From positions 322,958,001 through 323,022,000 of the forward strand of contig CM097883.1 in assembly GCA_044892505.1 (NCBI GenBank): 64,000 nt of DNA, given 5' to 3'. Source of the DNA: Schmidtea nova (taxonomy: Eukaryota). How positions within the stretch are numbered: position 1 is the stretch's first letter; each line of letters starts with the position of its first letter. The notes beneath the pieces are model-generated. The model did not search any database. It saw nothing but the letters and a program-made list of their open reading frames with translations, and had not been told where the DNA came from. A program made the translations under genes and the position numbers. This document shows, one piece after another, positions 4,882 to 30,037 of this stretch.

Positions 4882-4899
4882 TGGGGGCTCAGCCGGGAT
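4882..4899 (+). promoter_or_regulatory. Primer binding site, tRNA-Pro type
   Basis: TGGGGGCTCAGCCGGGAT matches the MLV tRNA-Pro PBS (TGGGGGCTCGTCCGGGAT) at 16/18 and lies 6 nt after the LTR end. Confidence 0.85.
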
Positions 4900-6140: not shown

Positions 6141-6323
6141 TATTAGAATTTGTCCCTTGAAACAAAGGGTTATTAGAATTTGTCCCTTGAAACAAAGGGT
6201 TATCAGCGGTTTGTCCCTTGAAACAAAGGGTTATTAGAATTTGTCCCTTGAAACAAAGGGTTATTAGAATTTGTCCCTTGAAACAAAGGGTTATCAGCGG
6301 GTTGTCCCTTGAAACAAAGGGTT
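6141..6323 (+). repeat. Tandem array 1: six copies of TGTCCCTTGAAACAAAGGGTT (period 30-31 bp)
   Basis: Copies at 6151, 6181, 6212, 6242, 6272 and 6303, with two alternating linker types. Confidence 0.95.
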
Positions 6324-6470
6324 GAGGCCAAAGAGCCATATTGAATGACCTAGCTAGGCGTTATTGAGAGATATGATTTAAGGCCAATAGAGCCATTTGA
6401 GATATGAATTTAAGGCCAATAGAGCCATTTGAGATAATTGATATTAATTAGAGGCCAAAGGAGCCAATAG
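6324..6470 (+). repeat. Tandem array 2: four copies of AGGCCAA(A/T)(A/G)GAGCCA
   Basis: Copies near 6325, 6381, 6413 and 6452. Confidence 0.85.
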
Positions 6471-6486
6471 GGATATCCGGATATAT

Positions 6487-6760
6487 AGCAACGGAGGGAA
6501 TATAGGCCCAGGGTTGCAATTAGTTAAAATTAAAGGAAGATAGTAACGGAGGGAATATAAGCCCAGGGTTACAATTGTTGAGAAGCAACGGAGGGAATAT
6601 AGGCCCAGGGTTGCAATTATTAAAAATTAAAGGAAGATAGTAACGGAGGGAATATAGGCCCAGGGTTACAATCGTTCGAGTAGCAACGGAGGGAATATAG
6701 GCCCAGGGTTGCAAGGGATAAGAAATAACAACAGAGGGAATATAGGCCCAGAGTTGTGAT
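6487..6760 (+). repeat. Tandem array 3: six ~33-bp hairpin-forming units (GCAAC-GGAGGGAATATAGGCCCAGG-GTTGC and variants)
   Basis: Copies near 6487, 6542, 6583, 6639, 6682 and 6727; the arms vary together. Confidence 0.92.
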
Positions 6761-7305
6761 CGTCGACGATAATGAGAATAGTGCGCACCAATAATTGAGA
6801 AATGCGAGTAAAGCTGATTATGCGACCTAAAATAATGCATGCAAGTAGAATTGAGAAATAGGAGCTGACCGGAAAGACCGGCAGAATTAATAATTAGAGG
6901 CTAGCAGAGAGAAAGATAAAGAGATGATAAAATAATAAACGAGTCAAATGACTCAGGAAATTAGAGCGTTCGAACGACAAATAAATTGGGAGACCGCGGA
7001 AAAAATAATTGATGTATTTTAATAACCGATAGATAATTGTTATGACTAAATAGATAATTGTGACCAGTATATAGATAATTTAAATAGACTTAAATAAAGG
7101 GGAATCTGGGAATGGGGAAAAATAATAGAAACCCAGTAATGAGAAGTCCCGTAAAAAGGGAATAAAAGCGCAACGATAACAATAGAGTATCGTTGAAGTG
7201 ACATTTGTATTTTAGATAAATCAATCAAATGAAACCAATCAACCAAGGAAGAAAAGAATCGGAATACGATAAGACAGGAAAATTGAGTATACAAAAGTAA
7301 TCCCG

Positions 7306-12000: not shown

Positions 12001-15000
12001 ACAATTCACACAGGAAATGGAAAGATGGTTAGAAGAAAGAGCCAATGAACCAAGAGACGTCACAGAAGAAACTGGACGAGAAACGAGATTGGTAGAAACG
12101 GGCACGACAATGGATAAACGACCTATAGGTAGACCCAAGATGGATCCAGCAAACGTAGTTATAAAATCAAGAGAGGAAAAAAGACGGGATCAATGGGATT
12201 TGTGTCTAAAGAAACTAAATAAAATAGCCGAAACAAAAGAAAAAGAAACAACACAAACATACCAAGGCGAAGAATGGATATCAAAGATGTTAATAGAAAT
12301 ACTGGCAATAATCGATCCAGAATTAAAGAAATGGTGGAGAATAAGCGAAATAAGCGAAAGGGCAAAATCACTGCATAGCGCCATCGCACCAATCCTACCA
12401 GAACTAATAAAAGAAAAGACAAGGTCAAACCACCTAGATTGGCAAGGAACCACGATGTTGATAAAGAAGTTAACGGGAGGAGCAGAGACGGATAACAAAT
12501 ATTTAATAGCTATAGCATACACCATTTACAATCTGTTGACACTGAGTAGAGGTCGACTAAAACCCACAGCACTTGAAAGACATATAAAGAATACAGCCAA
12601 AATTATAGAGAAAGAAATAGAACCGTACATCATCAGTAAAGGAGGATGGGAAACATTCACAAAACCGAACCAAAAGAAAAACCAAGCCAAAAATATGAAA
12701 AAGAAATTCGAAGAGATATTGGGAGAATTGGAAAAGGAAAAGTCGGGAACAGGAAACGGGAAATCGTCACTAAACTTGAGTTCCATTATTATGATGATGT
12801 TAATATGGATGATTAGTACTGACGGCGCAACAGCATTTGAAGTATTCGATTGCGATCAAATGGCATTAGGTGAAAAATACTCATTACGAGGGACAGAACA
12901 ATGTAAAGACGCAACCCCAACGGAGCTAAAAACATTAAAAAAGAGACAATTATACCACGTATATCAGGAAGCGGAACTGATAAGAACAATGGTCAGAGAA
13001 TGCAAAGTTTATAAAACCAGATTTGCTTTTTATTGTGGGCAGCGCCATTATTCAGCAATCGTGATGCCAGGAACGGAAAGAGAATCGGTAATGCTGCAAG
13101 GAGAAGACTGTGAAAAATTATTCAAACATGGAGAAGTAGAGACTAGAGATAGAGTAAAGATAAGAGGAAAAACGGGAGTGATATTGCAACAAACATATTA
13201 TGTAGCAGGAGCTATTACGGGAGGAGAAGGGTATTGTCAAGGAGCAACATATCCAATATTCGGAGTAGCAGCAACAAACCTAGTAGTAATAGATACGTAT
13301 ACAGTGGAACTAAAAACGTACGAGGCATTCTTCGATCCAACGACGGGAGAAATGAAAACTCTACCTATGTGCAAAATCGAGTCAAACACTTGTCAAACCG
13401 GTATGTCAACCTTAACATACCAGATACGAGGAAAGGAATGTCAACTACAACTGTTAAAGGAAGCAGAATTCGATGAGATACAAGGGAAAACCTTCCAAGA
13501 GGAAGAAGAAGACGAGGCAGCAAGAGGAAAAATACTTCAAGACACCGTACGAGGAGAGAAAAAGATCGAAACACGAACACAAGAAAAACAAATTAAAATG
13601 AGAAATACACCAACGGTACTAATTACCTCAGATGCAGATATCGGAATGAGGTTTGTAAAAGGAAAAACAGCCTTGAAATGCGGAGTAGCCATGTTGGAAA
13701 CCAACTACCCCGGCATTTTCGTATCGAAACAAGAAGTACCTAGTGCGAAACGCAAAGTGAACACGAACGATGTTAAATTACACCTGTACATGAACAATAA
13801 AATGGATTTTCTATTCCATAGAGGACAAGCGTCACTACAAAAAGTGTATTACGACTTAATAAATAACGATTGTATATTAAATAGGGAAATATTAAAGACA
13901 AAACTAGCAGTAGCAATCACAAACCCGGACAGTGCAATGCCACTATTACCATTGAGAGAAGGTCATTTTGGAAGGGTAGTCGGAGAGGTCATGTACGTAT
14001 ACATATGTAAAAAGACAAACGCGAAGGTAGCGACAATGACAAAATTACAACCAGGTCAGTGTACTAACGAACTAGAAATCGAATATAAAGGGAAAGTAAG
14101 ATATGTGCAACCAGTGACAAGAATCATAAATCCAATAAGCTTCGAACCAAATCCTTTCAATTGCAGCAACGCATATGGACCACTATACCAAAAACCAGAC
14201 GGAAATTGGGTTATGTTTCCGTCAAGAACAGAGGTACCAGCACCAAGGGAATTTGAATTGATGCAACTATCAAAAGGACGAAAATTTAAAGACGTAGATG
14301 TAAGTAATATGGGATTCTATAGCGCAAAAGACTTAGAGGCAGCGAGACAAAACATACTATTTCCAGCAAGAAGGGAAGCGGTGCTATCCAGTATTGTAAC
14401 AATAACAGGAGGAACAAATTACCAAGGTGGACCAAATTACGAATTATTATTGTCACCAGCCCACTTTAAGAAGGCAACGGAAAACATGATGAAAGCGATG
14501 TGGGGAAGATTTTTAATATTTGGACAAATGATGGCAGGAATACTTGGTGTTATACTAATTATACAAATAATACGGGTAATAATAACGCAAATGTTAGCCT
14601 GTTTTGACATCTATAAACGAGAAAAGAAAGTAAATTGGAAATTGGTGGTAGGATTCTTACCATTTTTGGCTAAAACAATGGTATTACACGGCCATTCAAA
14701 AGATATTCACCGAATAAAAAGACTCCTAAAAATACTAGCAAAAATGAAAGGAACCGACGAAGAGGTGGGACGAAAATTTAAAAAGATAATGAATAACGAG
14801 CAAACAAGACAACAACTAAAGAAAGAGAGAAAAGGACTATGGGAAAGAATGAAAGGGTACAGAACCCAAGACGATTCCAGTGGCGACGATGATGATGATA
14901 ACGAAGGAGGCCAAGTATATAAAAATCAAGTACCACAATATGTCGAAAAAAATCCAGCAGAAATGTGGAAGTGTTACGCACCCCCACCAACCATGTACCA

Positions 15001-15085
15001 AGAACCAACACCAGGGATGAGACAAAATACAATGCAAATGATGCCGATGACAAACATATATCCTATGATACCAGAAGACTATTGA
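8984..15085 (+). CDS. env: 2033-aa ORF2: ubiquitin-like domains, Bcl-2-like domain, internal signal sequence, chuvirus/gB-like class III envelope glycoprotein, TM and tail
   Basis: UBL-like segments at ~10064-10268, 10583-10822 and 11420-11626. BH2-like IEPYIISKGGWETF at ~12617-12658. Signal-like IIMMMLIWMISTDGATA|FEVFDC. Cys-rich ectodomain with ECKV..FYCG and GHFGRVVGEVMYVYIC. TM at ~14510-14605. Confidence 0.8.
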   Translation: MLRNGQEYKEKRNKKQQERERQPLRINMMRATNQTNTHEKEIVPEINPTNPNPTNNEGRKEIIQEDEEAEKETEKEVEKEGNQEEKRKLGKRGMMVILPNKHVFRFQYNIKEEVGILFNKVNEMAPGVTKLPREAFLKIEGAPEVKLKLTDTWENMGVVETKRNVMVIKEIEPEGIPSPVRHETRISRIFKGKMIRRRLGEIDELERKMRKVEVVDDKSKSTQKTIKSETKPTENPPSETNQIKHINMLRGQAKNFSDDEEDSDISSLAGDMLNEPEIEDKKIEVVKTPETIQVKEDEIQKLLDNALEVIYNEEFIDKKHYRKFMRAILQMNYKEWLSGREVETLSQYVGKLLKEPLHEYIILIQIKTCLPRIWIKTPLTEDIYQWVEDRLGSSYKNKFLYSQNGLVKKRTHLIETGIWPGEVTTLSICDDKREENLQEVAKEANTCFEKKIKPRLEYEKGRILRGNLNSMIEQIIPQIKKHRKELMRSEYEKLKRCIECIRDTSHTRWSQISYGKVIAKMGKAMFRQGKITDLKISVELPNEDTKEIEVVADCTIKELVNVINETLLQREPEEEWEDDIIMKYNEHVLWDHDERRLYKIGIWDNHQTIHVIRMDDTPRETAKDEKRERERQKEVVHKLQQIVDIYRNWRIWPEWENVLEELNLNRRLRTPVEKKWNERGKCWEPKAGEYEEEYEIGIEDDHKPETGRVCMVTRKAMPADLDGPETATMWLEREKQKTEEFVEILKTNAHGKRKLVKGLADFFVVNGEDITCLRKVAKAIAEYKRVNEWCPEQLDHVIKKWRNQEFSQESPQKVHLRIVYPNQEKEEFWVGIAEKVRDIKKKLRYEPPFHLQHQGRSLDNSLEIGITPAQLDIANTLTVAAIAGQPLKLKEEKKPKGSMSTPSPTKSVMTSGTSSEQARTTPRETRERTPPEPYDVDEILTDSDDMLEELIELTKEKDDNIFERIQELPTAIPVTNTEDEVEQEIIIEEVNEIAEEEARRANVENVQFTQEMERWLEERANEPRDVTEETGRETRLVETGTTMDKRPIGRPKMDPANVVIKSREEKRRDQWDLCLKKLNKIAETKEKETTQTYQGEEWISKMLIEILAIIDPELKKWWRISEISERAKSLHSAIAPILPELIKEKTRSNHLDWQGTTMLIKKLTGGAETDNKYLIAIAYTIYNLLTLSRGRLKPTALERHIKNTAKIIEKEIEPYIISKGGWETFTKPNQKKNQAKNMKKKFEEILGELEKEKSGTGNGKSSLNLSSIIMMMLIWMISTDGATAFEVFDCDQMALGEKYSLRGTEQCKDATPTELKTLKKRQLYHVYQEAELIRTMVRECKVYKTRFAFYCGQRHYSAIVMPGTERESVMLQGEDCEKLFKHGEVETRDRVKIRGKTGVILQQTYYVAGAITGGEGYCQGATYPIFGVAATNLVVIDTYTVELKTYEAFFDPTTGEMKTLPMCKIESNTCQTGMSTLTYQIRGKECQLQLLKEAEFDEIQGKTFQEEEEDEAARGKILQDTVRGEKKIETRTQEKQIKMRNTPTVLITSDADIGMRFVKGKTALKCGVAMLETNYPGIFVSKQEVPSAKRKVNTNDVKLHLYMNNKMDFLFHRGQASLQKVYYDLINNDCILNREILKTKLAVAITNPDSAMPLLPLREGHFGRVVGEVMYVYICKKTNAKVATMTKLQPGQCTNELEIEYKGKVRYVQPVTRIINPISFEPNPFNCSNAYGPLYQKPDGNWVMFPSRTEVPAPREFELMQLSKGRKFKDVDVSNMGFYSAKDLEAARQNILFPARREAVLSSIVTITGGTNYQGGPNYELLLSPAHFKKATENMMKAMWGRFLIFGQMMAGILGVILIIQIIRVIITQMLACFDIYKREKKVNWKLVVGFLPFLAKTMVLHGHSKDIHRIKRLLKILAKMKGTDEEVGRKFKKIMNNEQTRQQLKKERKGLWERMKGYRTQDDSSGDDDDDNEGGQVYKNQVPQYVEKNPAEMWKCYAPPPTMYQEPTPGMRQNTMQMMPMTNIYPMIPEDY

Positions 15086-15139
15086 ACGAGACGGTGCAGA
15101 AGCGTAGATCCGCAAGGAGACTCACATACAATTGCAGTA

Positions 15140-15817
15140 ATGTCATCAAACACCGGTCCAGTATTAACCACCACAATCGAAATTAACGGAAGGGAAATTG
15201 AAGCGATGATTGATACAGGAGCAAATATCTCAGCAATAGATATAAAATGGATACCACAAGAACAAAGACGGGAGATTGAGAGAACCAACGTTCACGTAAT
15301 AGCATGCAGTAAAGAAGTAGTAGAAGTTGCCGGAAGATGGTGGGTAAAGATAAAACATCAAAACACGGAAATCGAAACGTACGTAGCAGTAATACCAGCA
15401 CTAAGCGTACCATGCATTATAGGCACGGATCTGATGCCAGCATTATTTAAAGAAATAGTTATTGATCTCGGAACAATGAGACTAAAGGATAGGACAGGAC
15501 AGATATGCGCAATAGAAGCAAAAGTAACAAGTTCGAAACAAATAATCGTACCAGCCCGGAGAGAGAAAATATGTTTCGTAAAAATAGATCCTACAATAGA
15601 AGGTGACATGATCTTTGAACCCAGTAAAAGATTTGAAAAGAGAAAGTCGTTGCCAATGGCAAGGGGATTAGTGAGTGCGAATGACAACGGAGAAATCCCA
15701 ATAAATGTAGTAAATTTCGATGAAGAGGATAAAATAATTTATGAAAATGAAAGATTAGGTAAACTAACTCCAATGATGGATATCGAAATACCAATAAGAG
15801 AGGGAGAAAAAAGATGA
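15140..15817 (+). CDS. Retropepsin aspartic protease followed by a possible degenerate dUTPase-like spacer
   Basis: AMIDTGANISAI catalytic motif and CIIGTDLM flap-distal motif. In frame with ORF2 across a single TGA. Confidence 0.92.
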   Translation: MSSNTGPVLTTTIEINGREIEAMIDTGANISAIDIKWIPQEQRREIERTNVHVIACSKEVVEVAGRWWVKIKHQNTEIETYVAVIPALSVPCIIGTDLMPALFKEIVIDLGTMRLKDRTGQICAIEAKVTSSKQIIVPARREKICFVKIDPTIEGDMIFEPSKRFEKRKSLPMARGLVSANDNGEIPINVVNFDEEDKIIYENERLGKLTPMMDIEIPIREGEKR

Positions 15818-18800
15818 AGAACCCACCTGGAACATTGATAGCCAACTATTAAATGAGGATCAAAAGAAACAGCTAGAAAGATTACTGATAGAATATAAAG
15901 ACATATTCGCAGCATCCGATTTAGATCTAGGGACATGCGACGTCACACTACATACGATTCCACTAACAGACGAAACGCCGATTGCGTTAAGACCATACAA
16001 GTTAGCTGAAGCGCAAAAATCAGTAGCAGAAGCAGAAGTACAGAAAATGCTAGACGCAGAAGTAATTGAACCAAGCTGCTCACCGTGGCAATTCCCAGTT
16101 GTAATGGTGAAAAAGAAAGACGGAACACAACGATTTTGTATTGATTATCGGAGATTAAATGCGGTAACAAAACGGGATACATACCCATTACCAGACATCA
16201 ACGAGATGTTATTGACATTACAAGGAGCGGCATATTTTACATCATTGGATTTGAAAAGCGGATACTGGCAAATTAAAATGAAGGAGGAAGACAAAGAGAA
16301 AACTGCTTTCACTATCGGAAGAGACTTGTACCAATTTAGGAAAATGCCATTCGGACTAACCAATGCGCCAGCATCATTTCAAAGATGTATGAATTTCGTT
16401 ACCCACGGCATAAAACAATGCATGGTTTACATTGATGACCTACTAATCTACTCAAGCACATTTGAACAACACATCCAAGATATCAGAGATGTATTTGTGA
16501 GATTGAGACAATGGAAACTCAAGCTCAAACCATCGAAATGCGATTGGGCAAAGGAGAAAGTGACATTCTTAGGACATATTGTGTCCGCAAAAGGAAAGGA
16601 ACCAGATCCCAGAAACATTGATAAAGTAAAAGAATGTCCAGTACCAAAGACGATAACGCAGATCCAAGAATTTCTCGGATTATGCGGTTACTATAGGAAA
16701 TTCATAAAGGATTACGCAGGAATTGCAAAACCAATCCAAGAACTAGTGAAGAAAGACGTATCATTCATATGGGGAAGCGAACAACAAACCGCCTTCGAAA
16801 CATTGAGAGATAAGTTAATAACTGCACCAATATTGGTTCACCCGGATTTCAAGAAGCCGTTCTTACTCGCGACTGACGCAAGTGGATATGCAGCAGGAGC
16901 AGTGTTAGGACAATATGATGACGAAAGTAAAGAACGAGTAATTGGATACTATAGCAGAACATTCAAGAAACACGAGAAGAATTATTCAGTAACGGAAAGA
17001 GAAGCATTGGCGATAATATTAGCAATAAAACACTTTAAATATCTACTATGGGGACACGTTATATGCATAACCACGGATCATCAACCACTTGTATGGCTAG
17101 GACAACATAAGGAAACATCCAGCAGATTAATGAGATGGGCGATGCAATTACAAGAATATTCACCAGATATAAAATTCAAATCAGGAAAAGCGAATGCCAA
17201 CGCAGATTGCATGTCAAGATTAACGTTTCCAGAACTAACAGACCCAGAAGTGCAAAGAATATGCATAGTGATAGCAGAGGATTTGGATTTCAGCGAGTTA
17301 AAGAAAGATCAGCAAGAGGATAAAGAACTAGGACCCATAAAAGAATTCCTAAGCTCACGGAATATGGATGTATTCAAAGACAATGCGGAGTTAAAAGAAC
17401 ACATGAGGAAATACCAACATCGATACACAATAGAAAAAGGATGGTTGTTAATACAAGATGGAGAGAAACGATTAATGTGTCTGCCAGGCAATAGACGAAA
17501 AGAGATAATAACTCAATACCACGACGGAAAGTTGGGAGGACACATGTCCGACAAGAAAACATTAGATCGCATGAGACAAAAATATTATTGGCCAACAATG
17601 GACGAGGACGTAAAGGAATGGATAAAGAACTGTTTAACTTGTGCCACAAGAAAAGATAGTGGGAAGAAATGGAAAAATCCCTTAAAACCCATGCCGATAC
17701 CAGCAGAACCAATGACTACCATTGCGATGGATGTAATAGGACCGTTGCCAGAAAGTTTAAACGGGAATCAATATATATTGGTAATAACGGATTATTTGAC
17801 TAAATTCCCTGAGGCATTTGCGATGCCGGATCAAAAAGCAAAGACCGTAGCAAGAATTTTAGTAGAGGAAATATGTTGTCGATACGGAACCCCGAAACAA
17901 ATACTGACAGATCAAGGAACAAATTTTATGAGCGAAATATTAGATGAAGTAACAAACTACTTCAGAATAGCCAAATTACGAACGTCACCATATCATCCGC
18001 AAACCAATGGACAAACGGAAAGATTTAACGGCACATTGATTCGAATGTTATCCAATTATGTAAGCAAACATCAAACAGATTGGGATGAATACGTAAAGCT
18101 ATGTCTAATGGCATACCGAATGTCGATACACGCAGCAACAAAACTGAGTCCATTTCAATTAATGTATGGAAGGGAATGCAATATGCCAATAGATCTTGAA
18201 TATCAACCACCTTTGTCTCAATATATGGAGGAAGATGATTACGTCACCAAATTCAAAGAACGAATGCAAGAGATATGGAAGACAGCAGAACTAAACATAA
18301 AGTTTTATCAAGAAAGTTACAAGGACCTACACGATCAAAAGAAAAATGTTAAAACAAATAATCTTAAACCCGGAGATTGGGTAATGATAGAAACCCCAGA
18401 AATAATACCAGGAACCGTTAAAAAACTACAAAGACCAGGAAAAGGCCCTTACGAAGTTATATACAAAAAGGAAAACAATGTGAAGGTAAAACTTGTTAAT
18501 CGACCATTGATACGACCAATATACGTTAATACATGCAGATGTAAGAAAGTACCAAAAACAATAACCACAGCGCCAGAAGAACGAATAATAACCAGATCCC
18601 AGACAGCCAGAATGAATATGCTCAGAGCAACCAATGAAAGTACCGAAGCAGAAAACAATCAACAAGAAAAAAGAAACAAGGAAATTGTACTAAAAGCCAG
18701 AGAAATAATGGGAAAATGGCATGTCAGAGACGATATATTAAGAGATATACAGTTGATAATTAGTGATTACGCAAGGGGACTACCAACAAAACCAGTCATT

Positions 18801-21800
18801 TCAGAACTACTGGAAAAAATTCCAGAAGTACTTTTACTACAAGACATAGGAGGACAACCAGCATTACATAACGCCATAAAATGGGGAGAAGTAGAGAGAG
18901 TAAAAGAATTTCTAAAAATCGCTAAGGAAACAAACCAACACCTTGGTTTTGGGAATAGCGAACAAGAAACACCATTAATGGTAGCGGCCATCTACAAATC
19001 GGATAAAGCAATAGTAGACCTTTTGATAAATGCCAATTTCAACTGGACGGAACGCGATAGAGAAAACAAAACAGTCTTGAATCACGCAATATGGAGCTCA
19101 AATCAGATAATGCTCAAACAAATAATCGAGAAGGCCACTTGGGAAATCGACGAACTGATCAAAGGTGATATAATCAAGGAGGCAATAAAAATCGGTAACA
19201 GCAAAACAATACGCAAGCTAATAAAATGGAAAAGATCTGAAAATGATACATGGGTGTTAAATATAAACGAGGTATACAGTGAAGGACAAAACGCGTTATT
19301 ACAATTTCTATTAAAATTCGTTTGTGATCAGAAAACACTGTTAACGTTATTAGATAGAGGAAATATCATAATTTCCAAAAACATAGAGGAGTGTAAATTC
19401 GAAAGTGAAAAAGAAGCATTATTCAGGAATATTAGGGAATGGTGTGCAAAATCGCTAACCAAGACGATAACTTACAAAGATATATCCAGTTTTCATGATA
19501 AATACAAAACGGTGGAGGAAGAGTATGGCAGACTAATAGACATATTAAACCACCCCGAAAAATGCAAACAATTCCTATGTCGAAAGGAAAGAGAAAGCAA
19601 AAGGAAATTTACACCACTTTTCAGCGCAGAGGTACCATATCAAGAAAGGTTGGATGCGATACAAGACAAAGCAAAAGAACTATTACCAGAATTCGAAAAT
19701 TCTAAACATACACTGGAGATACTCGGAGCAATTGTGGAAAAGGTACACGCATACGCGGAAGGAACTTACAATGAAAACGATATGATGATCATAAAAAGAG
19801 AAATGCCAGTAACTTTCTTATTAACAAAGAATGGAGTATTGCCAATACATAGAGCCTTACGAGCAAGAAAAGAGAGGAGGATAGTCGAAATTGCACGGTT
19901 GATGCAAGATTGCGGAAATGACATGAACATGAAAGATAAAAAGGGAGATACCCTCATGATATTCGCAGCAAGAGCGAACACAAAAACCCGAGTGTTACAG
20001 GAACTGTACGAAGCAGGTGCAGGGCTCATGGGAAGAACGGGCAAAGACAGCTCAATACTAGACGTAGCATTGTTAACGCACAATTGGGAGGTGATAAATT
20101 TTATAAAAACAATCACAAATCAGGAAGAAATAGAATACCTTACAAGGACAGTTAAAAAAGCTAGCGTACATTCCATGATGCATAACACTGAACTAACCGA
20201 AGCAATACTCAATTGGATGAACCCAAACACCAATGAACCAGCATTCAGGATCAACGAGTTCATGGAACAAGGCCAAAATTTATATATAAAGTGTGCATTA
20301 ATAATAAACAAATGGCCAAAGATAATAGACATCTTCATGAGAAGAAACGATTTACGATTCACAAACAACCCAAAGGAAACAGAACGTACGGAAAAATGGA
20401 AAGAACTAATGAAAACGTACCTTAATAATTGGATAAAAGCCAAGAAAGAGATTCTAGATTGTAAATTAACCGATAAGGAAATACCTAAACAGGCATTAAC
20501 ACAAGAATATGAAGCAAGTATACTCACAACCATAACGTATGAAAAAATGATAGAAGCAATTAATGTCGAGGACGACATTTTTAACGACCAAAGGGGAGGC
20601 GACAATACAGGAAGCGACGACGATAGTACTCGAGAAAATCCAGAGGATCATGAGTTATCAGATAAAGAGGACAGTGAAGAGAAAGGAAGGGACACAGAGA
20701 AAAATGATAAGAAAAATGAATTTGGGAAACAAAGAAACAACAACTATAAAAATAAAAACGAAGCAAAAAGAACAGGCTACAAACAAACAATAAACCCATT
20801 CCTTAAACCAGAACTATTATTACTAACGGTAATCATGACCTTAATTAGTCCAACTCAAGGAATGATATGTGAAGAAAGAGCGACAATACAAATTAGAAAC
20901 GCAAAAGGAATCGAACGAGTATGTTGGTCAAAAAAGGACAAAATCTCGGGACAAAATAGTCCAATGGATTGCAGGATCTCAGAATACGAACAAGAAATCA
21001 TAGAGATCGATGACTTAGAGCTAGATACTTGGTACAAAATATGCACCATCAGAAAACAAAGGAATCCAAGATCACACAACACAATCGCATGTGCAAACTA
21101 CCTAACACCCAAAGTAACCATAACAGTACAGCAGTCATCCAAAGGAGACTATGTCGTAGGAAAGTGTGGAAGAACAGAGACACAAGGAACAAAAAACAAG
21201 AAACCCCAGACAATAGATAGACGAACAACGCCAACTATACGAATTACAATAGACAAGCCCGAAGCAAGAGTAACCACAAACGAAACCGAAAGAGTGACCT
21301 ACCAAACAGAACTACTATGTTTAGCACTCATATTAACAATGTTAAAACGGTTAGAAGAAGGGATAGACATTGAGACAATGGCAGTAACAGAGATGAACGA
21401 CACCCAAAATACCAACCCAAAGTGTTGGGCCAGAAACAACGAAGAAATTGGCATAAGCGAAATAAAGACGAGTCGGAAAAGGAAAACAAATAAAGTAACC
21501 AAGATATCAAAATTAAAAGCAGACAGGACGTATGAACTATGTTTACTAGAAAAAGAAAGACACAAGAAAGGAACGACAATTTGTAAAACATTTCAACCCG
21601 GGGAAGCAATAAAGTTCATAAGAAGAAGAAGAAATATACGCACCAAACGGAGAACAACTATAATGTTGGAGTTAACCGGAATAGAACCGGACGTCAAAGG
21701 CGTATGCTGGAAGAAGCAGGAAAGGAAAACAAACCAGAATACACCGCCGCAATGTCAAACAAACAGAGGAACAACCACAATACAGATAGAAGGATTAGAA

Positions 21801-22751
21801 AGCAATCAAACGTACGAAATATGCTTGATTAGGAAAAGCGACAAAATAACAGTAAATGAATTGGAATGCAAATTATATAAAACACCCACCAGAACAAGAG
21901 TTGGAAAGACAACGCGAAAAAGTAGAAGACAACGGAACAAAGGAAAAGCGAGGTATACCACTACTTTTAAACCTAATGGACAACAGAAAAACCAAGAAAT
22001 ACAAATAAAAGCCGAAAAGAATACTACAGCAACTCTTATACTATGGAGAATAGACAATAAAACGTTAGAAATATGTTGGGTAATAGTTCAGAAACAAAGG
22101 GAAAGACAGCCACGAAACTGTGGAAACGTGAAAGGAAAAGAGGAAATAAGTATCAGAAATCTGAAATTCAATAGCGAATACGAGATATGTGCGATAGAAA
22201 AGACGGACATATTGGGAAATCAGCAGGAAAGATGCGAAACGTACTACACACCGGTAAACTCAACGTCCAAAGGGAAAGTGAGAAAACTCGAATTTAGAGA
22301 ATTAAGTCAGACAACGGAACAAATGGACGCAGAACAAGTAGTAATAGACCCTTACGCAAGATGGACGCCGGAAGAAGTAATTAAAGAAGTTAAAAGAAAA
22401 CAACAAGAACGAGAACAACTACTAAATAAACTAAAGGGACAATACGGACCAATGATTAACCAAAGTGAAATTACAAAGATAGACACAAACAAACAAGTTA
22501 GAGAACTAATTGGTCTAGGAATACTAGCAGCAACTATTCCAGTAATAACAGTGTTATTAATAATATGGATATACGATGTACTCAACAAGAAACCAATAAC
22601 ACATTGGCCAGATATAAAAATTATGAACTACAGAATAGAATTACCGGAAGAAGTACAGAAAGAATTTCAAAGGAGGACGAAAGGTAAAGAATTTTGGAGA
22701 CAAATAGAAGATGAAGAGCGGTACGAAGGAAAGACAGTGATGGTGATATAG
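15798..22751 (+). CDS. pol: Pol (RT, RNase H, integrase with GPY/F) extended by ankyrin clusters and an FN3-repeat membrane protein
   Basis: Frame is open from 15798 (…LIEYKDIF…PIALRPYKL…) although the ORF track starts at 16047. Motifs: YIDDLLI (RT), TDASGYAAGAVL (RH), HDGKLGGH..CLTC, MDVIGP/TDQGTNF/GQTERFN (IN), GPY. ANK motifs at ~18840-20340, signal-like segment ~20810-20861, FN3-like repeats ~20862-22260, TM ~22506-22574. Confidence 0.95.
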   Translation, partial: EREKKDEEPTWNIDSQLLNEDQKKQLERLLIEYKDIFAASDLDLGTCDVTLHTIPLTDETPIALRPYKLAEAQKSVAEAEVQKMLDAEVIEPSCSPWQFPVVMVKKKDGTQRFCIDYRRLNAVTKRDTYPLPDINEMLLTLQGAAYFTSLDLKSGYWQIKMKEEDKEKTAFTIGRDLYQFRKMPFGLTNAPASFQRCMNFVTHGIKQCMVYIDDLLIYSSTFEQHIQDIRDVFVRLRQWKLKLKPSKCDWAKEKVTFLGHIVSAKGKEPDPRNIDKVKECPVPKTITQIQEFLGLCGYYRKFIKDYAGIAKPIQELVKKDVSFIWGSEQQTAFETLRDKLITAPILVHPDFKKPFLLATDASGYAAGAVLGQYDDESKERVIGYYSRTFKKHEKNYSVTEREALAIILAIKHFKYLLWGHVICITTDHQPLVWLGQHKETSSRLMRWAMQLQEYSPDIKFKSGKANANADCMSRLTFPELTDPEVQRICIVIAEDLDFSELKKDQQEDKELGPIKEFLSSRNMDVFKDNAELKEHMRKYQHRYTIEKGWLLIQDGEKRLMCLPGNRRKEIITQYHDGKLGGHMSDKKTLDRMRQKYYWPTMDEDVKEWIKNCLTCATRKDSGKKWKNPLKPMPIPAEPMTTIAMDVIGPLPESLNGNQYILVITDYLTKFPEAFAMPDQKAKTVARILVEEICCRYGTPKQILTDQGTNFMSEILDEVTNYFRIAKLRTSPYHPQTNGQTERFNGTLIRMLSNYVSKHQTDWDEYVKLCLMAYRMSIHAATKLSPFQLMYGRECNMPIDLEYQPPLSQYMEEDDYVTKFKERMQEIWKTAELNIKFYQESYKDLHDQKKNVKTNNLKPGDWVMIETPEIIPGTVKKLQRPGKGPYEVIYKKENNVKVKLVNRPLIRPIYVNTCRCKKVPKTITTAPEERIITRSQTARMNMLRATNESTEAENNQQEKRNKEIVLKAREIMGKWHVRDDILRDIQLIISDYARGLPTKPVISELLEKIPEVLLLQDIGGQPALHNAIKWGEVERVKEFLKIAKETNQHLGFGNSEQETPLMVAAIYKSDKAIVDLLINANFNWTERDRENKTVLNHAIWSSNQIMLKQIIEKATWEIDELIKGDIIKEAIKIGNSKTIRKLIKWKRSENDTWVLNINEVYSEGQNALLQFLLKFVCDQKTLLTLLDRGNIIISKNIEECKFESEKEALFRNIREWCAKSLTKTITYKDISSFHDKYKTVEEEYGRLIDILNHPEKCKQFLCRKERESKRKFTPLFSAEVPYQERLDAIQDKAKELLPEFENSKHTLEILGAIVEKVHAYAEGTYNENDMMIIKREMPVTFLLTKNGVLPIHRALRARKERRIVEIARLMQDCGNDMNMKDKKGDTLMIFAARANTKTRVLQELYEAGAGLMGRTGKDSSILDVALLTHNWEVINFIKTITNQEEIEYLTRTVKKASVHSMMHNTELTEAILNWMNPNTNEPAFRINEFMEQGQNLYIKCALIINKWPKIIDIFMRRNDLRFTNNPKETERTEKWKELMKTYLNNWIKAKKEILDCKLTDKEIPKQALTQEYEASILTTITYEKMIEAINVEDDIFNDQRGGDNTGSDDDSTRENPEDHELSDKEDSEEKGRDTEKNDKKNEFGKQRNNNYKNKNEAKRTGYKQTINPFLKPELLLLTVIMTLISPTQGMICEERATIQIRNAKGIERVCWSKKDKISGQNSPMDCRISEYEQEIIEIDDLELDTWYKICTIRKQRNPRSHNTIACANYLTPKVTITVQQSSKGDYVVGKCGRTETQGTKNKKPQTIDRRTTPTIRITIDKPEARVTTNETERVTYQTELLCLALILTMLKRLEEGIDIETMAVTEMNDTQNTNPKCWARNNEEIGISEIKTSRKRKTNKVTKISKLKADRTYELCLLEKERHKKGTTICKTFQPGEAIKFIRRRRNIRTKRRTTIMLELTGIEPDVKGVCWKKQERKTNQNTPPQCQTNRGTTTIQIEGLESNQTYEICLIRKSDKITVNELECKLYKTPTRTRVGKTTRKSRRQRNKGKARYTTTFKPNGQQKNQEIQIKAEKNTTATLILWRIDNKTLEICWVIVQKQRERQPRNCGNVKGKEEISIRNLKFNSEYEICAIEKTDILGNQQERCETYYTPVNSTSKGKVRKLEFRELSQTTEQMDAEQVVIDPYARWTPEEVIKEVKRKQQEREQLLNKLKGQYGPMINQSEITKIDTNKQVRELIGLGILAATIPVITVLLIIWIYDVLNKKPITHWPDIKIMNYRIELPEEVQKEFQRRTKGKEFWRQIEDEERYEGKTVMVI

Positions 22752-22789: not shown

Positions 22790-23290
22790 ATGCATTACCG
22801 TAATAGTATGGGTATCGATATTATAAAAATACAAAAAGAGAAACCGAAAACGATTAATGTATATAATTTAGAAATGAACGAACAGGAAGAAATAGCAGAA
22901 ACTACTATGGCTATGCGATGGAAAGCCCAGTGTGACATGTTAATACGAACGATCAACTCACTACAAAATCAGTTAATTGAGAAACAGAATTTGTTATCCG
23001 AAAGTTATAATAATAGTTTTGAACAACTCCACAGAATCGAGGAGCAACAGAGATTGATAACGCAACTTACCAGAGAGAATCAAATGATGAGCGACATAAA
23101 TCAGAGACAAGCAATAGAGATAGACCGTTTAACAATGGGAGAGACAGAAGAAGCAGAGGATGGATGGACAAATTGGGCAATAAACAGATCAGAAAATGAC
23201 CCAGAACCAGATTCAACAAACGAGCCGTGGATAAATAAAGCGAAAAATTGTAAATATGTAAAAACAAAAACAAGAAAAATCAAAAAATAG
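22790..23290 (+). CDS. 166-aa coiled-coil accessory protein, unknown function
   Basis: Heptad-rich LQNQLIEKQNLL…LITQLTRENQ; same strand and codon bias as the element. Confidence 0.7.
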   Translation: MHYRNSMGIDIIKIQKEKPKTINVYNLEMNEQEEIAETTMAMRWKAQCDMLIRTINSLQNQLIEKQNLLSESYNNSFEQLHRIEEQQRLITQLTRENQMMSDINQRQAIEIDRLTMGETEEAEDGWTNWAINRSENDPEPDSTNEPWINKAKNCKYVKTKTRKIKK

Positions 23291-23321
23291 ATAACAAATC
23301 AAGTGTATATATCATTGTAGA

Positions 23322-24698
23322 ATGAATACAGAAGGAAAAGCCGAAGAGCGGATAATCGAAATTTTGAGAGCCGAGAACAGGAAATGGAGTCAGAGACTCA
23401 CTTGTGTAAATTGTAAAAACATAATATTGAAACCAAGACAAACCCTATGCGGATGCAGAGTATGTACCAAATGCATACACGAGTTAAGTATGAAAAGACC
23501 ACCAGAATGTCCAGAATGCAAAGGACAAATAAAATTCGAAGAAACCAGACCAGATAGAGCAACTCAGAGAGAAATCATGAACACGAAAACCGAATGTATA
23601 AATCAACCATGTATATGGCAAGGACAAATACGCGATCTCGAGAACCATCTGGAGAACTGCGAAAAGAAAACTGAATGTAACAAATGCCAACAAAAAATAA
23701 CTATAAAGAATAAAGAGCAGCACAAAGATGAATGTAAAGAAGAGGAAAGTCTATGCGAATATTGTGGAACTCGAGAAACGAGGAGAAAGATCGAAGAAGA
23801 ACACCTGAATGTAAAAGAGGAGAAAGTATGTAGACAATATGTAGGAATATGTTCAAACGAATGCGAGATAACGGTAGAAGTAAAATTACAAGAACATTGG
23901 AAAGTGTGCACGGAGAAACCAAGGGAATGTCCTTATAACAAACAGGGATGTATGGAGAAAAGAACGCAACAAACCATGAAACAACATCTGGAGGAAGCAT
24001 TGCTAAAGCATGCGGAAATGACAAACGAAGCAACAAAAGAAACCGAACAAACGATCAAAAAATTAGAAAGAGAAATAGAGTCACACAAGATAATGGTAAG
24101 CCTACTGTTGGAAACCAGAGAGCAATTCGAACTAACACGAGAAAAAATGAAGAGAAAGATAAAAGCTATTGAAGAATTGGCTAAAGGAATGAAAATCCAA
24201 TACAACAAACTCACCCAGGATACCGAGGAAAAGCTACCAATCGCACCATACGTATGGAAAGTGACAGATTTTAGAGACAAATTAACACAGGCCCGAAACA
24301 TGACGAAAACAGCAGTAATAAGCCCACCATTTTATTTATGGAGAAACGGAGCTAAAGTGAGATTGAAGCTATACCCAAATGGAGACGGAAGAGGACGAGG
24401 AACACATGTGTCAATATTTTTCTCGCTATGTAAAGGAGAATACGACGACCTAGTAGAATGGCCCTTGAAAGTAGGAGTCATTGTAAGAATCAGAAGTGTA
24501 ACAAAACCAGTAGAAAAATTCTTTGAGACAGAGAAACATGCGAGTACAAGCGAGAAACCAACCACAGAATGTGGATTAGCAGCGGGAGAACCGATGTTTA
24601 TAACGAAAGAAAGCCTATGGGAACGATTATATGCAGACACCCTATATATAGAAATGGAAAGGAACGAGAAAGCGGATAGAAAAGGATGGTTGACGTAA
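23322..24698 (+). CDS. TRAF: Full-length intronless TRAF-family protein (RING, TRAF zinc fingers, coiled coil, MATH/TRAF-C)
   Basis: RING CVNC..KPRQTLCGCRVCTKC..CPEC, then PDRATQREI and zinc fingers. MATH domain YVWKVTDF…SPPFY…KLYPNGDGRGRGTHVSIFFSLCKGEYDDLVEWP parallels TRAF2/3/5. Confidence 0.95.
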   Translation: MNTEGKAEERIIEILRAENRKWSQRLTCVNCKNIILKPRQTLCGCRVCTKCIHELSMKRPPECPECKGQIKFEETRPDRATQREIMNTKTECINQPCIWQGQIRDLENHLENCEKKTECNKCQQKITIKNKEQHKDECKEEESLCEYCGTRETRRKIEEEHLNVKEEKVCRQYVGICSNECEITVEVKLQEHWKVCTEKPRECPYNKQGCMEKRTQQTMKQHLEEALLKHAEMTNEATKETEQTIKKLEREIESHKIMVSLLLETREQFELTREKMKRKIKAIEELAKGMKIQYNKLTQDTEEKLPIAPYVWKVTDFRDKLTQARNMTKTAVISPPFYLWRNGAKVRLKLYPNGDGRGRGTHVSIFFSLCKGEYDDLVEWPLKVGVIVRIRSVTKPVEKFFETEKHASTSEKPTTECGLAAGEPMFITKESLWERLYADTLYIEMERNEKADRKGWLT

Positions 24699-24810: not shown

Positions 24811-25872
24811 ATGGGAAATATCGAAGTATGCTTACAGGAAATTACGATGCATCAAGCAGAAGCGATTAGCGATCATCTAGAACAGATTGAAATATGGGTC
24901 AATGCATATTATGGAAAGCAAGAGGAGGTAGAGAGACAAGCCGAATTATTAAAAGAAGCGGAAAGATCAAGTCAAAGAATTCGAGAAAAAATAGAAGAAG
25001 TATACAAAATGCTACAACAACAAAAGGAATATTACCAGGGAATGATGAAAGAGCGACGAGAGGAAAGAGACAGACAGCAGATGGAAGCTGAACACAAGAT
25101 GTATTCGATTACAGAACAAGCAAGATACTGGAAGAAAGAAGCAAAAGAATCTTACGAAAAAGCTAAAGAAATAATAGAAAAGACAGCGTATAGTGATGAC
25201 TGGAAGTTATATAAAGAGATCGACGAATTAAAAGACGAGTTAGAACAGAAAATCCACCAAGAAGTGTTGAATAAGAGATGGAATACAAAGAGACAGCAAT
25301 TTATCCGGGAACAAGCAAAGAAAATTAAAGGACTAACCTATCAAGTTCAAAGAATGGGAGAAGAACTAGCTAATCAGGAACAACTGAAAATTATGCTCAC
25401 CGGAATATGGAATCAGAAAGAAGAAGAGATGAAGAGAGATATAAATGGTTATCAAGGAGTGATTACCCAGAAGAAAATAGAGCTAAAAAGAACCAGAGAA
25501 AGGTTAAAGGAAGCGAAGCAAAGTTATGAGGAAAATTTAACGAATTTGATGAAAGAAAACGAAGAATTGAAACAGAAACGAGTAACAGTACCAGCAATAC
25601 CCAAAGAAGCAAGTATAACGGCAGCCGTAACAAAAATGATGAAAGAAGACGAACAAAAGACAAAAGTAATCGAATTAGAGAAGCAAATAGAAACATTAAC
25701 AGAACAAGCAAATTACCTAGAATATTTGCTGGACGAGGAGATCCAGATATCTCACATGTATCGAGATGAAGTCGAAATGTGGAGGAGAAGGGTTGTTTGG
25801 ATACCACTCCCCACGAACCAAGTAGAGCCTCAGGACGAAGGTTTCTACGAACCAAACGAGACGATTGTGTAA
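24811..25872 (+). CDS. 353-aa long coiled-coil accessory protein
   Basis: Almost continuous E/K/Q-rich heptads; pyrimidine tract plus ATAG just before the ATG; AATAAA overlaps the stop. Confidence 0.75.
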   Translation: MGNIEVCLQEITMHQAEAISDHLEQIEIWVNAYYGKQEEVERQAELLKEAERSSQRIREKIEEVYKMLQQQKEYYQGMMKERREERDRQQMEAEHKMYSITEQARYWKKEAKESYEKAKEIIEKTAYSDDWKLYKEIDELKDELEQKIHQEVLNKRWNTKRQQFIREQAKKIKGLTYQVQRMGEELANQEQLKIMLTGIWNQKEEEMKRDINGYQGVITQKKIELKRTRERLKEAKQSYEENLTNLMKENEELKQKRVTVPAIPKEASITAAVTKMMKEDEQKTKVIELEKQIETLTEQANYLEYLLDEEIQISHMYRDEVEMWRRRVVWIPLPTNQVEPQDEGFYEPNETIV

Positions 25873-26733: not shown

Positions 26734-28095
26734 TGTTGGGCCAGCCAAATAGAGGGAAAAGTGAAATAAAAGTAGAATAATTAAAACAAAAAGAGAAAAA
26801 TAAGGTAAAAAGGGGGAATATTAATTTGTTAAAAGAAAAGAGTAATATAGTTAAAATATAGATAAATTAAGAACAAACTATAAATAAAAATAAATGAATT
26901 TCTAGATATTAACGGGCCCAGGAGGCATCTAAAAACAAAATAAATACAAATAATAATAATTAAAACCAAATAAAAGTACTTGTTATTGAATAATTGTTTT
27001 TGAAACCCAGACCTCCGAGGAAGAATACAATCTAAAAAATAAAAATTAATTAGAATCAAAAATAATAATCAAACCCACCATGAAACTGGCCGAACCTGAT
27101 TGGTCGGTCTAGACACGACTGATCAGTATAAATACTGATCAGATTTTTCATAAAATCAGACTTTGGTTGAGACTAAAATTTAGACGGTGTAAAAACTTAG
27201 ACTTGTGTTCAGACGAAAAATTCACATTAGATTGTACATTGCTCCGACCGAGATCACCACTAAGTTGATATTAACCAGGCTGATTTTCAATAGACGATCA
27301 CCGTTTAGACCGATTTTAATCAAACCAATTTTCGGGATTCAATTTAGGTATTTTTGATATATTTACGTTTATTATTGATATTGTTGTATTCATATGTCAT
27401 CACATTAAAATTTATTGATTATTTATCTCATTATGATTTATGTTTATATTTAAAATATATAATGATCATATTAATTTTGCGCCGTTGGGAGCTCTAGGTT
27501 CCCAAGGTGTCAGTCCGTGGCGTGGTGCTCGAGGGCTCCACACACGGTAAAGTAATAAATAACCAAATATGATTTTATTAGTAGTGGTCGAGATTTGCAC
27601 ATGGGACACCCAACGAATCCGGGGAATTATTTTCCGATCATTTTAGCTATAGAGGAGGCGATTTTCAGATAAAGTCTAACGATGTAGGATAGGAAAGAAT
27701 TTTTGACTGTGAGGAGGCACAATTTTTCACCCTCACCACAGCACAGTCACTAAACCGCAGAAAATTATGTCGACCGCATTTGATACGAAAGGGGCGTCTT
27801 TCGAGTAAGTTAGGGAATACATGATGTGAGAGAGTTTCCGTTTTGAGGTATCAATGTTTCAATATCCAAGCAGACAAATCACCATTTTTCGACTATATTA
27901 TTGAACAAGAACAGATAAATCTAAGCATACACGAGAGCAATGTATACCGTAACAAGCAACAGTTTTTCTTGATTTCAGTTAAGGTCTAAGGGGAAGGCAA
28001 ATAATAAAGGCATCACGATGAGAGATAACATCTACTATAATTAATTATTGATTTAAATTGTTAACTATTATAAAATTCAGCATCGTTCTAGTATC

Positions 28096-28572
28096 ATGAC
28101 TAAGCACAGATTCACCATCAAAAAGCGACGAGAACGAGCCCGACTTAGCCCATTAAAGCCGGCTCCTTTTGAGATTTTGCAACAAATCCATCAAAAAATG
28201 TGGGCATGGCGCCGAGAGCTTGAAACCGCATGTCCATTTACAGTATGGGACCATCCACGGCATCACGTATGGTACCGGGGATGCGCTAGTTGGCCAATCA
28301 TTCCAGACGAGGAATTCGAATCATGGCACGCCGCCTGGTTCGTTCTGATGTTAGATAAAAGAGGATTCCCGAACTGTGTAATTTATTGGGGGTTCATTCC
28401 AGCCTCTACATTCAAGGAATTGGGGTTCAAGTTCCATACAGCAATACGACCCCTTCGAGAAGCTGAGAGGATCCGTTTTCAACAGGCCTCGTCCAATATC
28501 ACAGGAATCAACACAAATTTGCAAATCAGATCGATATTTTCGTACCGAGGAAAAATGACCGAAGATGAATAG
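28096..28572 (+). CDS. ORF-A copy in the 3' LTR
   Basis: Identical translation to 2936-3412. Confidence 0.65.
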   Translation: MTKHRFTIKKRRERARLSPLKPAPFEILQQIHQKMWAWRRELETACPFTVWDHPRHHVWYRGCASWPIIPDEEFESWHAAWFVLMLDKRGFPNCVIYWGFIPASTFKELGFKFHTAIRPLREAERIRFQQASSNITGINTNLQIRSIFSYRGKMTEDE

Positions 28573-28892
28573 TTGAATCGATGGCCACCTGTTTTTAAAT
28601 TTAATAAATGTTTTAGAGAAATCTGAAGTGTCTCATTTTGTTGATAGTATTGTAATGTAGATTTATTAATATCCAGCGTTGTAGTTGTTATAGTCATTAG
28701 GAAATTCATTTACTAATTAGTTCAATAAATCTTTTGAGCCTTCAATAATTAGATAGTTAAATAATTTTGCAAAGAACTCAATAATTAAAAACATTAGTAT
28801 GCATCTCGTTTAATAATAATAATAGTTGTCTAAATAAAATACCATTGTTGATAGGTTCTCCAGCGAATTTATCGTTATAATATTCAGACATC

Positions 28893-29294
28893 ATGCCGGT
28901 TTCAGAAAACTCGAAGAGAATCATGGGACAAATCCAAGATAGAAAGTTGAGGGACCAGCAGCGGCAGATCAAGCGACTCACGGTCGCCAATGATGAATTG
29001 AGAGCGAAGTGGTTCTCGTCCAAACAAATGAAGGACCAATCGAAAAAACTCGAGCGAATGCAGGAAGCACTGGCCGCAACTAAATTGGAACTAGACGCCG
29101 TCCAGAGAGAACTACGAAATTGCCTAACTGCAGTAACAAGAAGCTATATCGACTCCGAATTACGAGCGCTAATCCGGCCGATCACGGCTCAGCGCTGGAC
29201 ACAAAGTACTTATCAAGATGTCGCTTGCGGGACGGAAGATGGTATCCTCATGGCCCCCACTCTTGTAACGGCCGATTTGCCTACTTTTCAGTGA
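28893..29294 (+). pseudogene. ORF-B copy in the 3' LTR, truncated to 133 aa by a 2-bp deletion
   Basis: TTTTCA-CA-GTGA becomes TTTTCA-GTGA; also an E-to-K change at 29022. Confidence 0.8.
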
Positions 29295-30037
29295 TCCATC
29301 GAGAACAATGGCGTCAGCACCTGTCCTAAACCAACCGCTTCGAAAACACCGAATGGGATCGCGACAGCGTCGTCGTCGCCGAGAATTTGCGAAGCGCCTG
29401 GACGAGCAAATCCACCACTTAAACTCCTTAACCGAAGCAGAGTTGATTCAGGAGATTAGTCTGGAGTTTGCATAGGAAAACATCAATGTCAAATAACAAC
29501 CTGTTTTTATTATTTTAATAAAAGTATTTTGTGTAAATTTTGTCTCTCATCGTATGACTTCACTAAATAAAATAAATAACTCGATTAAATCATAGAAATA
29601 GAAAATCTCATCAGTATTTTTTTCAGACCGACCGTTTCTACGTAGAGACTGATTAATTACCTTGTAGATCAGTTAAGGAAAGTGCAATTGGGGAAAGCGT
29701 GTGATAGATCATGAGGATAGGTAGTATAAAATTCATTGGGAAACGAACATCCGTAGAATGTAAATGCGTAAGACCTTCTATCGGCAGCAAGGACCCGAGG
29801 GAAGATAAATGGGGAGTAGTTTTGGCAACAAAGCTCACCTGCCCATCATTTTTCCAACCCCGTATGCAGTACCAACTTGACTAGTAGGGAATAGTCAAGG
29901 GCATGCGCGTGTAGTAGTCATGTTATGTATGGTTATGGGCGTGGAATTCCTAGTATACGTACTCATCAATAGTCGTTCAATTAATGATTAACTATTTATT
30001 TGAATTACTTAAAACCCACCCATAATCCCAGCAAAAT

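Follow-up and report, generated by a model that had tools for sequence, protein, structure and literature searches.

A full-length, apparently maintained TRAF gene carried by a giant Burro-type LTR retroelement of Schmidtea nova

The 64,000-nucleotide stretch of Schmidtea nova DNA analysed here (the window; contig CM097883.1, positions 322,958,001 to 323,022,000) contains a giant LTR element whose TRAF cargo forms a gene of its own, full-length and apparently maintained. A single frame of 458 aa lies between two 3.3-kb LTRs, as the first-pass annotation had proposed for a complete intronless TRAF inside an LTR retrotransposon. We consider it probable, at about 60%, that a host TRAF was captured long ago by a Burro-type element and kept by selection, and that it serves as a TRAF2/5-like scaffold that retunes host signalling.

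Anatomy of the element

The element is 28,460 bp long with an internal region of 21.9 kb, and its gag, PR-RT-RH-IN order, LTRs and target duplication are those of Ty3/gypsy (Table 1). The LTRs are 99.8% identical (4 substitutions and one 2-nt indel), have TG...CA ends and are bordered on both sides by the 4-bp duplication AAAT; the near-identity of the LTRs marks the 28,460 bp as a young insertion. The probable primer-binding site is presumably akin to a tRNA-Pro site. Both ORFs within the LTR, which are also present in the 3' LTR, have acceptor-like starts and no assigned family, and the 3' LTR copy of the 194-aa ORF is shortened by the 2-nt indel. The parts of the Burro layout (gag, fusion-type env, protease, RT-RH-IN and ankyrins) are all present, with the fusion-type env between gag and protease and with MATH/TRAF and ankyrin cargo, and the size falls within the giant range of Burro elements (about 30 kb overall, of which as much as 25 kb is internal).

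Table 1. Coordinates of the giant LTR element and its TRAF gene, in positions of the window
Feature	Position	Strand	Evidence
5' LTR, 3302 bp; contains a 158-aa ORF (2936-3412) and a 194-aa ORF (3733-4317)	1574..4875	+	
Probable primer-binding site	4882..4899	+	
92-aa ORF, no family; in frame with the RING ORF, stop between	5204..5482	+	
60-aa IAP-type RING ORF (XIAP/cIAP-like)	5483..5665	+	Pfam zf-C3HC4_3 E 5e-13; XIAP RING E 2.6e-12
Two tandem-repeat blocks in leader (30-nt unit and 42-55-nt unit)	6110..6773	+	
gag, three CCHC knuckles	7273..9063	+	
2040-aa ORF between gag and protease; C-terminal Monjiviricetes-type fusion glycoprotein (env; best stretch 13592-14617)	8963..15085	+	Pfam PF24664 E 1e-69
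Aspartyl protease ORF	15086..15817	+	
pol with RT, RNase H and integrase, ankyrin repeats at 18864-19133 and a long tail that has two hydrophobic segments	15798..22751	+	
Accessory ORF, 166 aa, no family	22790..23290	+	
Spacer before TRAF: TGTANATA at 23304 (another at 23249), T-rich run, AG one base ahead of ATG (acceptor-like)	23290..23321	+	
Full-length TRAF ORF, 458 aa	23322..24698	+	
C4C4 RING (C28, C31, C43, C45, C48, C51, C63, C66); N30/K32 at TRAF6 I72/L74	23403..23519	+	
Five zinc fingers; R104 at TRAF6 R146 (R83 just upstream, at TRAF6 R125)	23595..24011	+	
Coiled coil (TRAF-N)	24000..24215	+	AlphaFold helix, trimer model
MATH/TRAF-C, receptor groove partly diverged	24249..24656	+	Pfam, PDB
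353-aa accessory ORF of no assigned family; its start is acceptor-like	24811..25872	+	
Accessory ORF, 184 aa, one hydrophobic segment	25956..26510	+	
3' LTR, 3300 bp; duplicated AAAT directly after	26734..30033	+	

Burro elements have one polyprotein of about 5,000 aa; here a similar total length is split into four pieces, with breaks near 9.0 kb, at the stop 15083-15085 and near 15.8 kb. Ordinary decay suffices to explain the broken polyprotein, since the LTR divergence predicts 2.7 disabling events and three were counted; assembly error or recoding may be responsible instead. The pol tail (20598-22751, plus strand) has its two hydrophobic segments around repeats that are weakly fibronectin-III-like (Pfam E 0.13), and it looks like a membrane-anchored ectodomain ending the polyprotein. 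The motif I/M-N/H-M/L-M/L occurs five times at apparent domain borders (gag, env ORF and after the integrase; 7273-22751, plus strand), and its copies are candidate protease cleavage sites. A BIR was found neither by Pfam in the ORFs scanned nor by a BIR-like pattern in six frames, and the 60-aa IAP-type RING ORF is possibly a reduced counterpart of the Burro1 IAP cargo. By-eye candidates for the BCL2-like and ubiquitin/SUMO-like segments that precede env in Burro elements gave nothing significant in Pfam, PDB or Atlas, and a model with pLDDT 49 led to an uninformative fold search; a dUTPase-like segment likewise gained no significant support. Rfam gave 0 matches in the element, 0 tRNA genes were found, the phage collection gave no match, and a scan for bacterial promoters and terminators, not relevant here, was at or below chance.

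Elsewhere in the window are another gypsy element, unrelated to the first, whose gag-pol frame of 1280 aa is open (60043-63885, minus strand), a broken hAT transposase remnant (33273-35207, plus strand) and a foldback-like pair of 1.3-kb inverted repeats (92%) around a 1.3-kb core (55107-59079). There are N runs at 38900-39044, 45485-47435 and 50619-51261; low GC and a 300-nt repeat family at these positions were rejected as artefacts of the N runs.

The TRAF gene and its domains

The TRAF frame runs on the plus strand from the ATG at 23322 to a TAA ending at 24698, and no intron is needed to read it. The chance of an open frame of this length at the local base composition is about 1e-14, and this value, together with the Pfam and Foldseek TRAF matches, ruled out an artefact or chance ORF. 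Comparisons with PDB, Pfam, AlphaFold and Foldseek agreed with the first-pass annotation that all TRAF modules are present and in order, namely RING (aa 28-66), five zinc fingers (aa 92-230), coiled coil (aa 227-298) and MATH (aa 310-445). The N-terminal 150 aa align with the RING-zinc-finger regions of PDB TRAF6, TRAF5 and TRAF2 (E 7e-11 to 4e-9); the Pfam RING models give the RING no score, and Pfam zf-TRAF reaches E 7.6e-5, under its curated cut-off. Zinc ligands number 8 in the RING, all of them Cys, and 20 in the five zinc fingers. Pfam MATH_2 matches the MATH domain with E 1.2e-20, both MATH_2 and TRAF-mep_MATH exceed the cut-off, and the best PDB matches of the domain are TRAF5, TRAF3 and TRAF2. 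The AlphaFold model (19-row alignment, mean pLDDT 86) has a single 72-residue helix at aa 227-298 ahead of the MATH sandwich. Foldseek with this model ranks TRAF1/2/3/5 first (E about 1e-14), and all ten Atlas rows shown are TRAF-type clusters.

RING chemistry and predicted ligase function

Ligand 4 of the RING is Cys where the TRAF2, TRAF5 and TRAF6 chains have His, which confirms the earlier observation of a replaced His. The suggestion that went with it, of a change specific to the element that alters the ligase, was not supported. Of the 16 close relatives examined, 2 lack the segment; in the other 14, ligand 4 is Cys in 12, Phe in one and His in one. The Cys is thus a trait of a broad divergent TRAF group and not of the element, and an element-specific lesion was rejected. 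The Cys preserves a zinc ligand, and C4C4 RINGs can be active, as in the ligase TMEM129, and are also known in CNOT4 (PMC4024746).

To judge from the alignments, the E2-binding positions, the kept arginines and the diverged receptor groove are more telling than the His-to-Cys change. The I72D/L74R mutant of TRAF6 has been reported to abolish Ubc13 binding, and R125 and R146 to position ubiquitin (PMC5702613); these residues were mapped to the ORF through the PDB N-terminal alignment. I72 and L74 correspond to N30 and K32, which are polar or charged, neither being hydrophobic, and which resemble the TRAF6 mutant without Ubc13 binding and also the TRAF2 pattern. Both ubiquitin-positioning arginines are retained, as R83 and R104, and the Pro after ligand 7 is kept. 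The position of TRAF6 F118, which we take to have a role in RING dimers, is Arg. The ligase behaviour of the protein may differ from that of other TRAFs, owing to the E2-binding positions rather than to the His-to-Cys change. Reports also exist that the E2 surface is variable among TRAFs, that TRAFs without E2 binding are able to serve as partners, and that TRAF5, a weak E2 binder too, raises TRAF6 activity within heterodimers (PMC5702613).

Receptor groove and trimer

The TRAF2 hot spots for Px(Q/E)E motifs (PMC6125299) were mapped to the ORF through the PDB MATH alignment. Four of the ten are identical (Y395, F410, F447 and S454), and the others are altered: R393 to Lys, L432 to Val, S453 to Ala, S455 to Thr, F456 to Ser and C469 to Glu, the last two being unique to the ORF among the 19 alignment rows. 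The ORF does not share the receptor hot-spot pattern of TRAF1/2/3/5; TRAF4 and TRAF6 also differ at these positions, so that the claim of TRAF2-like specificity is lowered and not that of TRAF family membership.

A trimer model of aa 255-450 scored 0.83, compared with 0.21 for the best of 3 controls, with at least 96% of contacts agreeing between runs and pLDDT of at least 85. Among microbial proteins, 21 of 30 solved pairs attain the score mark, as do 0 of 23 single chains, and the eukaryotic counts are 17 of 29 and 0 of 30; since TRAF trimers are already solved structures, the pass here may reflect the model's prior exposure to them. The protein is predicted to form a trimer via its coiled coil and MATH domain. 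We read it as a trimeric scaffold that would act with host TRAFs and have a shifted receptor specificity.

Residence, selection and relatives

Four-fold sites of the TRAF ORF have A at 0.62 (n=138) and T at 7%. The corresponding A fraction is 0.61-0.65 in gag, the env ORF, the protease and the pol core, and 0.28 in the hAT transposase remnant of the flank. The A-rich codon bias proposed earlier as like that of the element is thus present, with the qualification that the unrelated gypsy element of the same window also reaches 0.59. Under a codon model of the element core the TRAF ORF scores 0.199 per codon (0.20-0.24 for the core ORFs), and under the model of the other gypsy element 0.108. No host gene that could serve as codon control was recognised in the flanks of the element, where GC is 0.306, no more than compatible with a triclad host; the genome of S. 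mediterranea is more than 70% A/T (PMC11410931).

All 28 columns that are Cys or His in at least 70% of the other alignment rows are kept in the TRAF ORF, while its non-ligand N-terminal positions are 16-36% identical to relatives. The nearest full-length relative has about 34% identity, and retention of every such column at that distance argues for long selection. The long residence put forward in the first-pass annotation gains support from these columns and from synonymous sites that match the element core, and taken together they argue that the gene was captured long ago and has since been under sustained purifying selection in its lineage. The intact frame of this young copy proves nothing about selection, because a neutral TRAF frame would still be open with a probability of 0.78 at the LTR divergence.

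A HMMER search with the ORF gave 5006 matches, and 16 of the best 150, picked as high-ranking single-stretch matches, were examined. A word-based search with the TRAF protein alone gave 6 distant TRAFs (24-29%), and a profile search gave 11 proteins, only one of them from the close group. The ORF groups with P0008, P0025, P0036 and P0118 with support of 97/92 (94/94 on the N-terminal part), and its branch is long in all trees; the grouping could be partly an artefact because of long branches and skewed composition. Three of these four nearest relatives (P0025, P0036 and P0118) are without an intact MATH domain. The group with Cys at ligand 4 was not recovered as one clade, and the His-bearing P0044 groups with an oyster TRAF2-like protein. 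At residues 15-52, P0020 has the C-terminal tail of an integrase (pairwise E 1.5e-6 and 45% over 38 aa against the pol of the element), joined in frame to a TRAF with a C4C4 RING that belongs to another branch. This fits a second capture, but insertion of the element tail into a host gene or a chimera made during assembly would fit too. A tree uniting P0020 with the TRAF ORF was rejected (AU p 0.001, the pair being named after earlier trees were seen). Amino-acid skew of the N-terminal part is 0.39-0.48 in the TRAF ORF, its four nearest rows, P0019 and P0020, and 0.19-0.33 in the other 12; it was dropped as a marker of element-borne relatives, being limited to the N-terminal part and absent in MATH.

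Expression of the 3' ORF cluster

The TRAF needs an mRNA of its own because it is positioned 7 kb behind the pol start. It is the second of four stand-alone ORFs after pol, and the spacers in this cluster are 31-112 nt long. These lengths resemble the operon spacing of roughly 100 nt in Macrostomum, and planarians are cited as using spliced-leader trans-splicing (PMC8629364). An acceptor-like start was defined, for ORFs of at least 90 aa, as a pyrimidine-AG that lies at most 3 nt from the first ATG and is preceded by 20 nt containing 5 or more T. Of the 5 internal stand-alone ORFs, 4 have such a start, compared with 15 of the 479 other ATGs (p 8e-6; over 9 thresholds, p ranges from 0.013 to 8e-6). 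The ORF at 22790 has an acceptor-like site solely at a later ATG, and the 60-aa RING ORF, below the 90-aa limit, has none. The element has 8 plus-strand copies of TGTANATA, all of them grouped around the ORF starts of this 3' cluster (22767-25895). Within the four 120-nt stretches (480 nt) ahead of these ORFs there are 7 of the 8 internal copies, with 0.22 expected (0 of 5000 simulations; the motif was spotted before the test). We take the motif to resemble a Pumilio element or a UGUA cleavage-factor site. The acceptor-like starts and the shared spacer motif suggest that the 3' ORFs may have separate mRNAs, made by cis- or trans-splicing.

Proposed role and alternative explanations

According to the reading that we prefer, a host TRAF mRNA would have been taken up long ago by a giant env-bearing Burro-type Ty3/gypsy retroelement and retained by selection as an accessory gene. 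The TRAF mRNA would be released from the four-ORF 3' cluster by cis- or spliced-leader splicing onto the AG ahead of the ATG, and the protein would trimerise by coiled coil and MATH and serve as a TRAF2/TRAF5-like scaffold, not as a self-sufficient TRAF6-like ligase. Given its poor E2-binding residues and kept ubiquitin-positioning arginines, the protein could pair with host TRAFs. Such pairing would retune TNF-receptor or stress signalling, most likely favouring the survival of cells with an active element, beside the IAP-type RING that the element also encodes. The pro-survival direction is taken from the other cargo of the element, and the TRAF of a fish virus acts oppositely (PMC3352826). 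Evidence that counts against this reading includes the youth of the copy with its polyprotein in four pieces, the receptor groove, degraded in comparison with TRAF2, the Arg at the position of TRAF6 F118 and the lack of a BIR in this copy.

Polar or charged E2-binding positions, a diverged groove and a coiled coil and trimer interface that look intact in the model would also suit a dominant-negative decoy that, once incorporated into trimers or RING dimers of host TRAFs, poisons them and so weakens immune or death signalling instead of relaying it. We consider such a decoy unlikely, since the zinc ligands are all retained, as are the two ubiquitin-positioning arginines, which goes beyond the needs of a pure decoy, and since the weak E2 binder TRAF5 boosts TRAF6 activity in heterodimers (PMC5702613). 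The complete C4C4 RING with its Pro after ligand 7, of a class that can be active (PMC4024746), the variable E2 surface of TRAFs (PMC5702613) and a groove altered at specific positions, not lost, fit an autonomous E3 ligase that acts with a non-Ubc13 E2 on a new substrate (e.g., a host restriction or silencing factor), the altered MATH groove being the substrate site. Both TRAF6 E2-contact positions are without a hydrophobic residue, however, and we hold this redirected ligase to be quite improbable.

It is also conceivable that the gene is a captured retrocopy without function for the element, drifting or newly acquired, and the long branch of the ORF, the three nearest relatives without intact MATH and a copy too young for its open frame to carry meaning are in line with this. 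Its synonymous sites are fully element-like, however, and the frame and the full set of ligand columns survive at such low identity elsewhere, where an unselected gene would not stay open; a passive passenger is therefore very improbable. The captured and selected scaffold remains our preferred reading.

Planarian TRAF expansion and significance

An expansion of 121 MATH domains in 99 transcripts has been reported for planarians (PMC6109357), most of them partial or redundant (PMC7586133). The string 'transpos' is absent from the main text of PMC7586133 and PMC8807557, and the accessible text of PMC8532177 and PMC13238120 has nothing on TRAF. Targets of SMEDWI-3 (piRNA-degraded transcripts) are enriched in TRAF zinc-finger, ankyrin and E3 mRNAs, in an account whose accessible text leaves Burro unmentioned (PMC6824462). 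The TRAF and ankyrin cargo of the element belongs to the same domain classes as these degraded transcripts (PMC6824462). Element-borne TRAF copies could contribute to the planarian TRAF/MATH expansion; a genuine expansion in the host is no less likely, because most of the 16 relatives have a better-conserved MATH and no sign of element origin. A wider proposal, which we regard as speculative and rather doubtful, is that Burro-type elements captured TRAFs repeatedly and carry an operon-like 3' cassette resolved by spliced-leader trans-splicing. Their copies would then be a sizeable share of the planarian TRAF/MATH expansion and a source of the piRNAs behind the prominence of TRAF, ankyrin and E3-ligase mRNAs among SMEDWI-3 targets, and cargo gene and silencing would jointly tune host TRAF signalling in stem cells. 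The element makes the expansion and the piRNA-target enrichment testable through genome counting, and its full-length, apparently selected TRAF with a defined start is a concrete target for RNAi and biochemistry beside the IAP cargo reported to aid regeneration.

Comparison with known systems

Like cellular TRAF2/3/5 and TRAF6, the TRAF ORF has RING, zinc fingers, coiled coil and MATH; it differs from them in its C4C4 RING, in the serine triad (Ala-Ser-Thr), in two hydrophobic-pocket residues that are Ser and Glu, and in being intronless and element-borne. TRAF cargo of Burro has reportedly been noted since 2007, as a MATH domain label. Viral TRAFs found as BFVD matches (megalocytivirus ORF111L and giant-virus TRAF-like proteins) are likewise TRAFs taken up by a mobile genome, but they are independent captures in DNA viruses with 11-27% identity to the ORF. 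The megalocytivirus ORF111L binds TRADD and induces rather than blocks apoptosis (PMC3352826).

The RT-IN relatives are polyproteins 46-51% identical to the element, and 9 of the 120 matches listed have a fusion env in one polyprotein, ahead of the protease (P0240, P0245, P0251, P0253, P0261, P0262, P0271, P0275 and P0277), several with extra protease-like copies. On this sequence comparison, a fusion env between gag and protease extends beyond Burro. The RT-IN relatives listed have no MATH family, the 15 compared have no TRAF match, and no named Burro sequence is among the 120 matches listed. Our literature search found no other report on TRAF in LTR elements; the primary Burro descriptions may already show a full-length downstream TRAF.

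The closest known systems are Burro1/GYPSM1 of Schmidtea mediterranea and Burro-2/3/4, which share with the element the giant gypsy-like LTR form of about 30 kb, the three-CCHC gag, a mononegavirus-like fusion env that separates gag from the protease, ankyrins, a MATH of the TRAF type, tandem repeats and IAP-related cargo (PMC6431247). Planarian Burro/GYPSM1 has the same part order and MATH_TRAF_C, BIR, ankyrin and BCL2-like motifs; the accessible text makes no statement that every Burro has a BIR (PMC6431247). The captured IAP region of Burro1 (RING and BIR) protects stem cells against apoptosis, as cited second-hand in PMC13465017, whereas the present element is without a BIR and has only the short IAP-type RING ORF upstream of gag. 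A Burro-like element of Dugesia (Girardia) tigrina also has a TRAF-type domain on a separate accessory ORF, which is not stated in the accessible text to be a full-length TRAF; that ORF is upstream and the gag has two knuckles, whereas here the TRAF is downstream of pol and the gag has three (PMC6431247). The novelty implied in the first-pass annotation was thus overstated: TRAF-type MATH cargo of Burro elements is already published, for another planarian even on an accessory ORF of its own (PMC6431247), and the element is a variant, not a discovery of a new kind. Compared by description, MATH_TRAF_C lies within the 4,873-aa polyprotein of Burro1/GYPSM1, whereas in the present element it belongs to a separate ORF downstream of pol that also has a RING and five zinc fingers.
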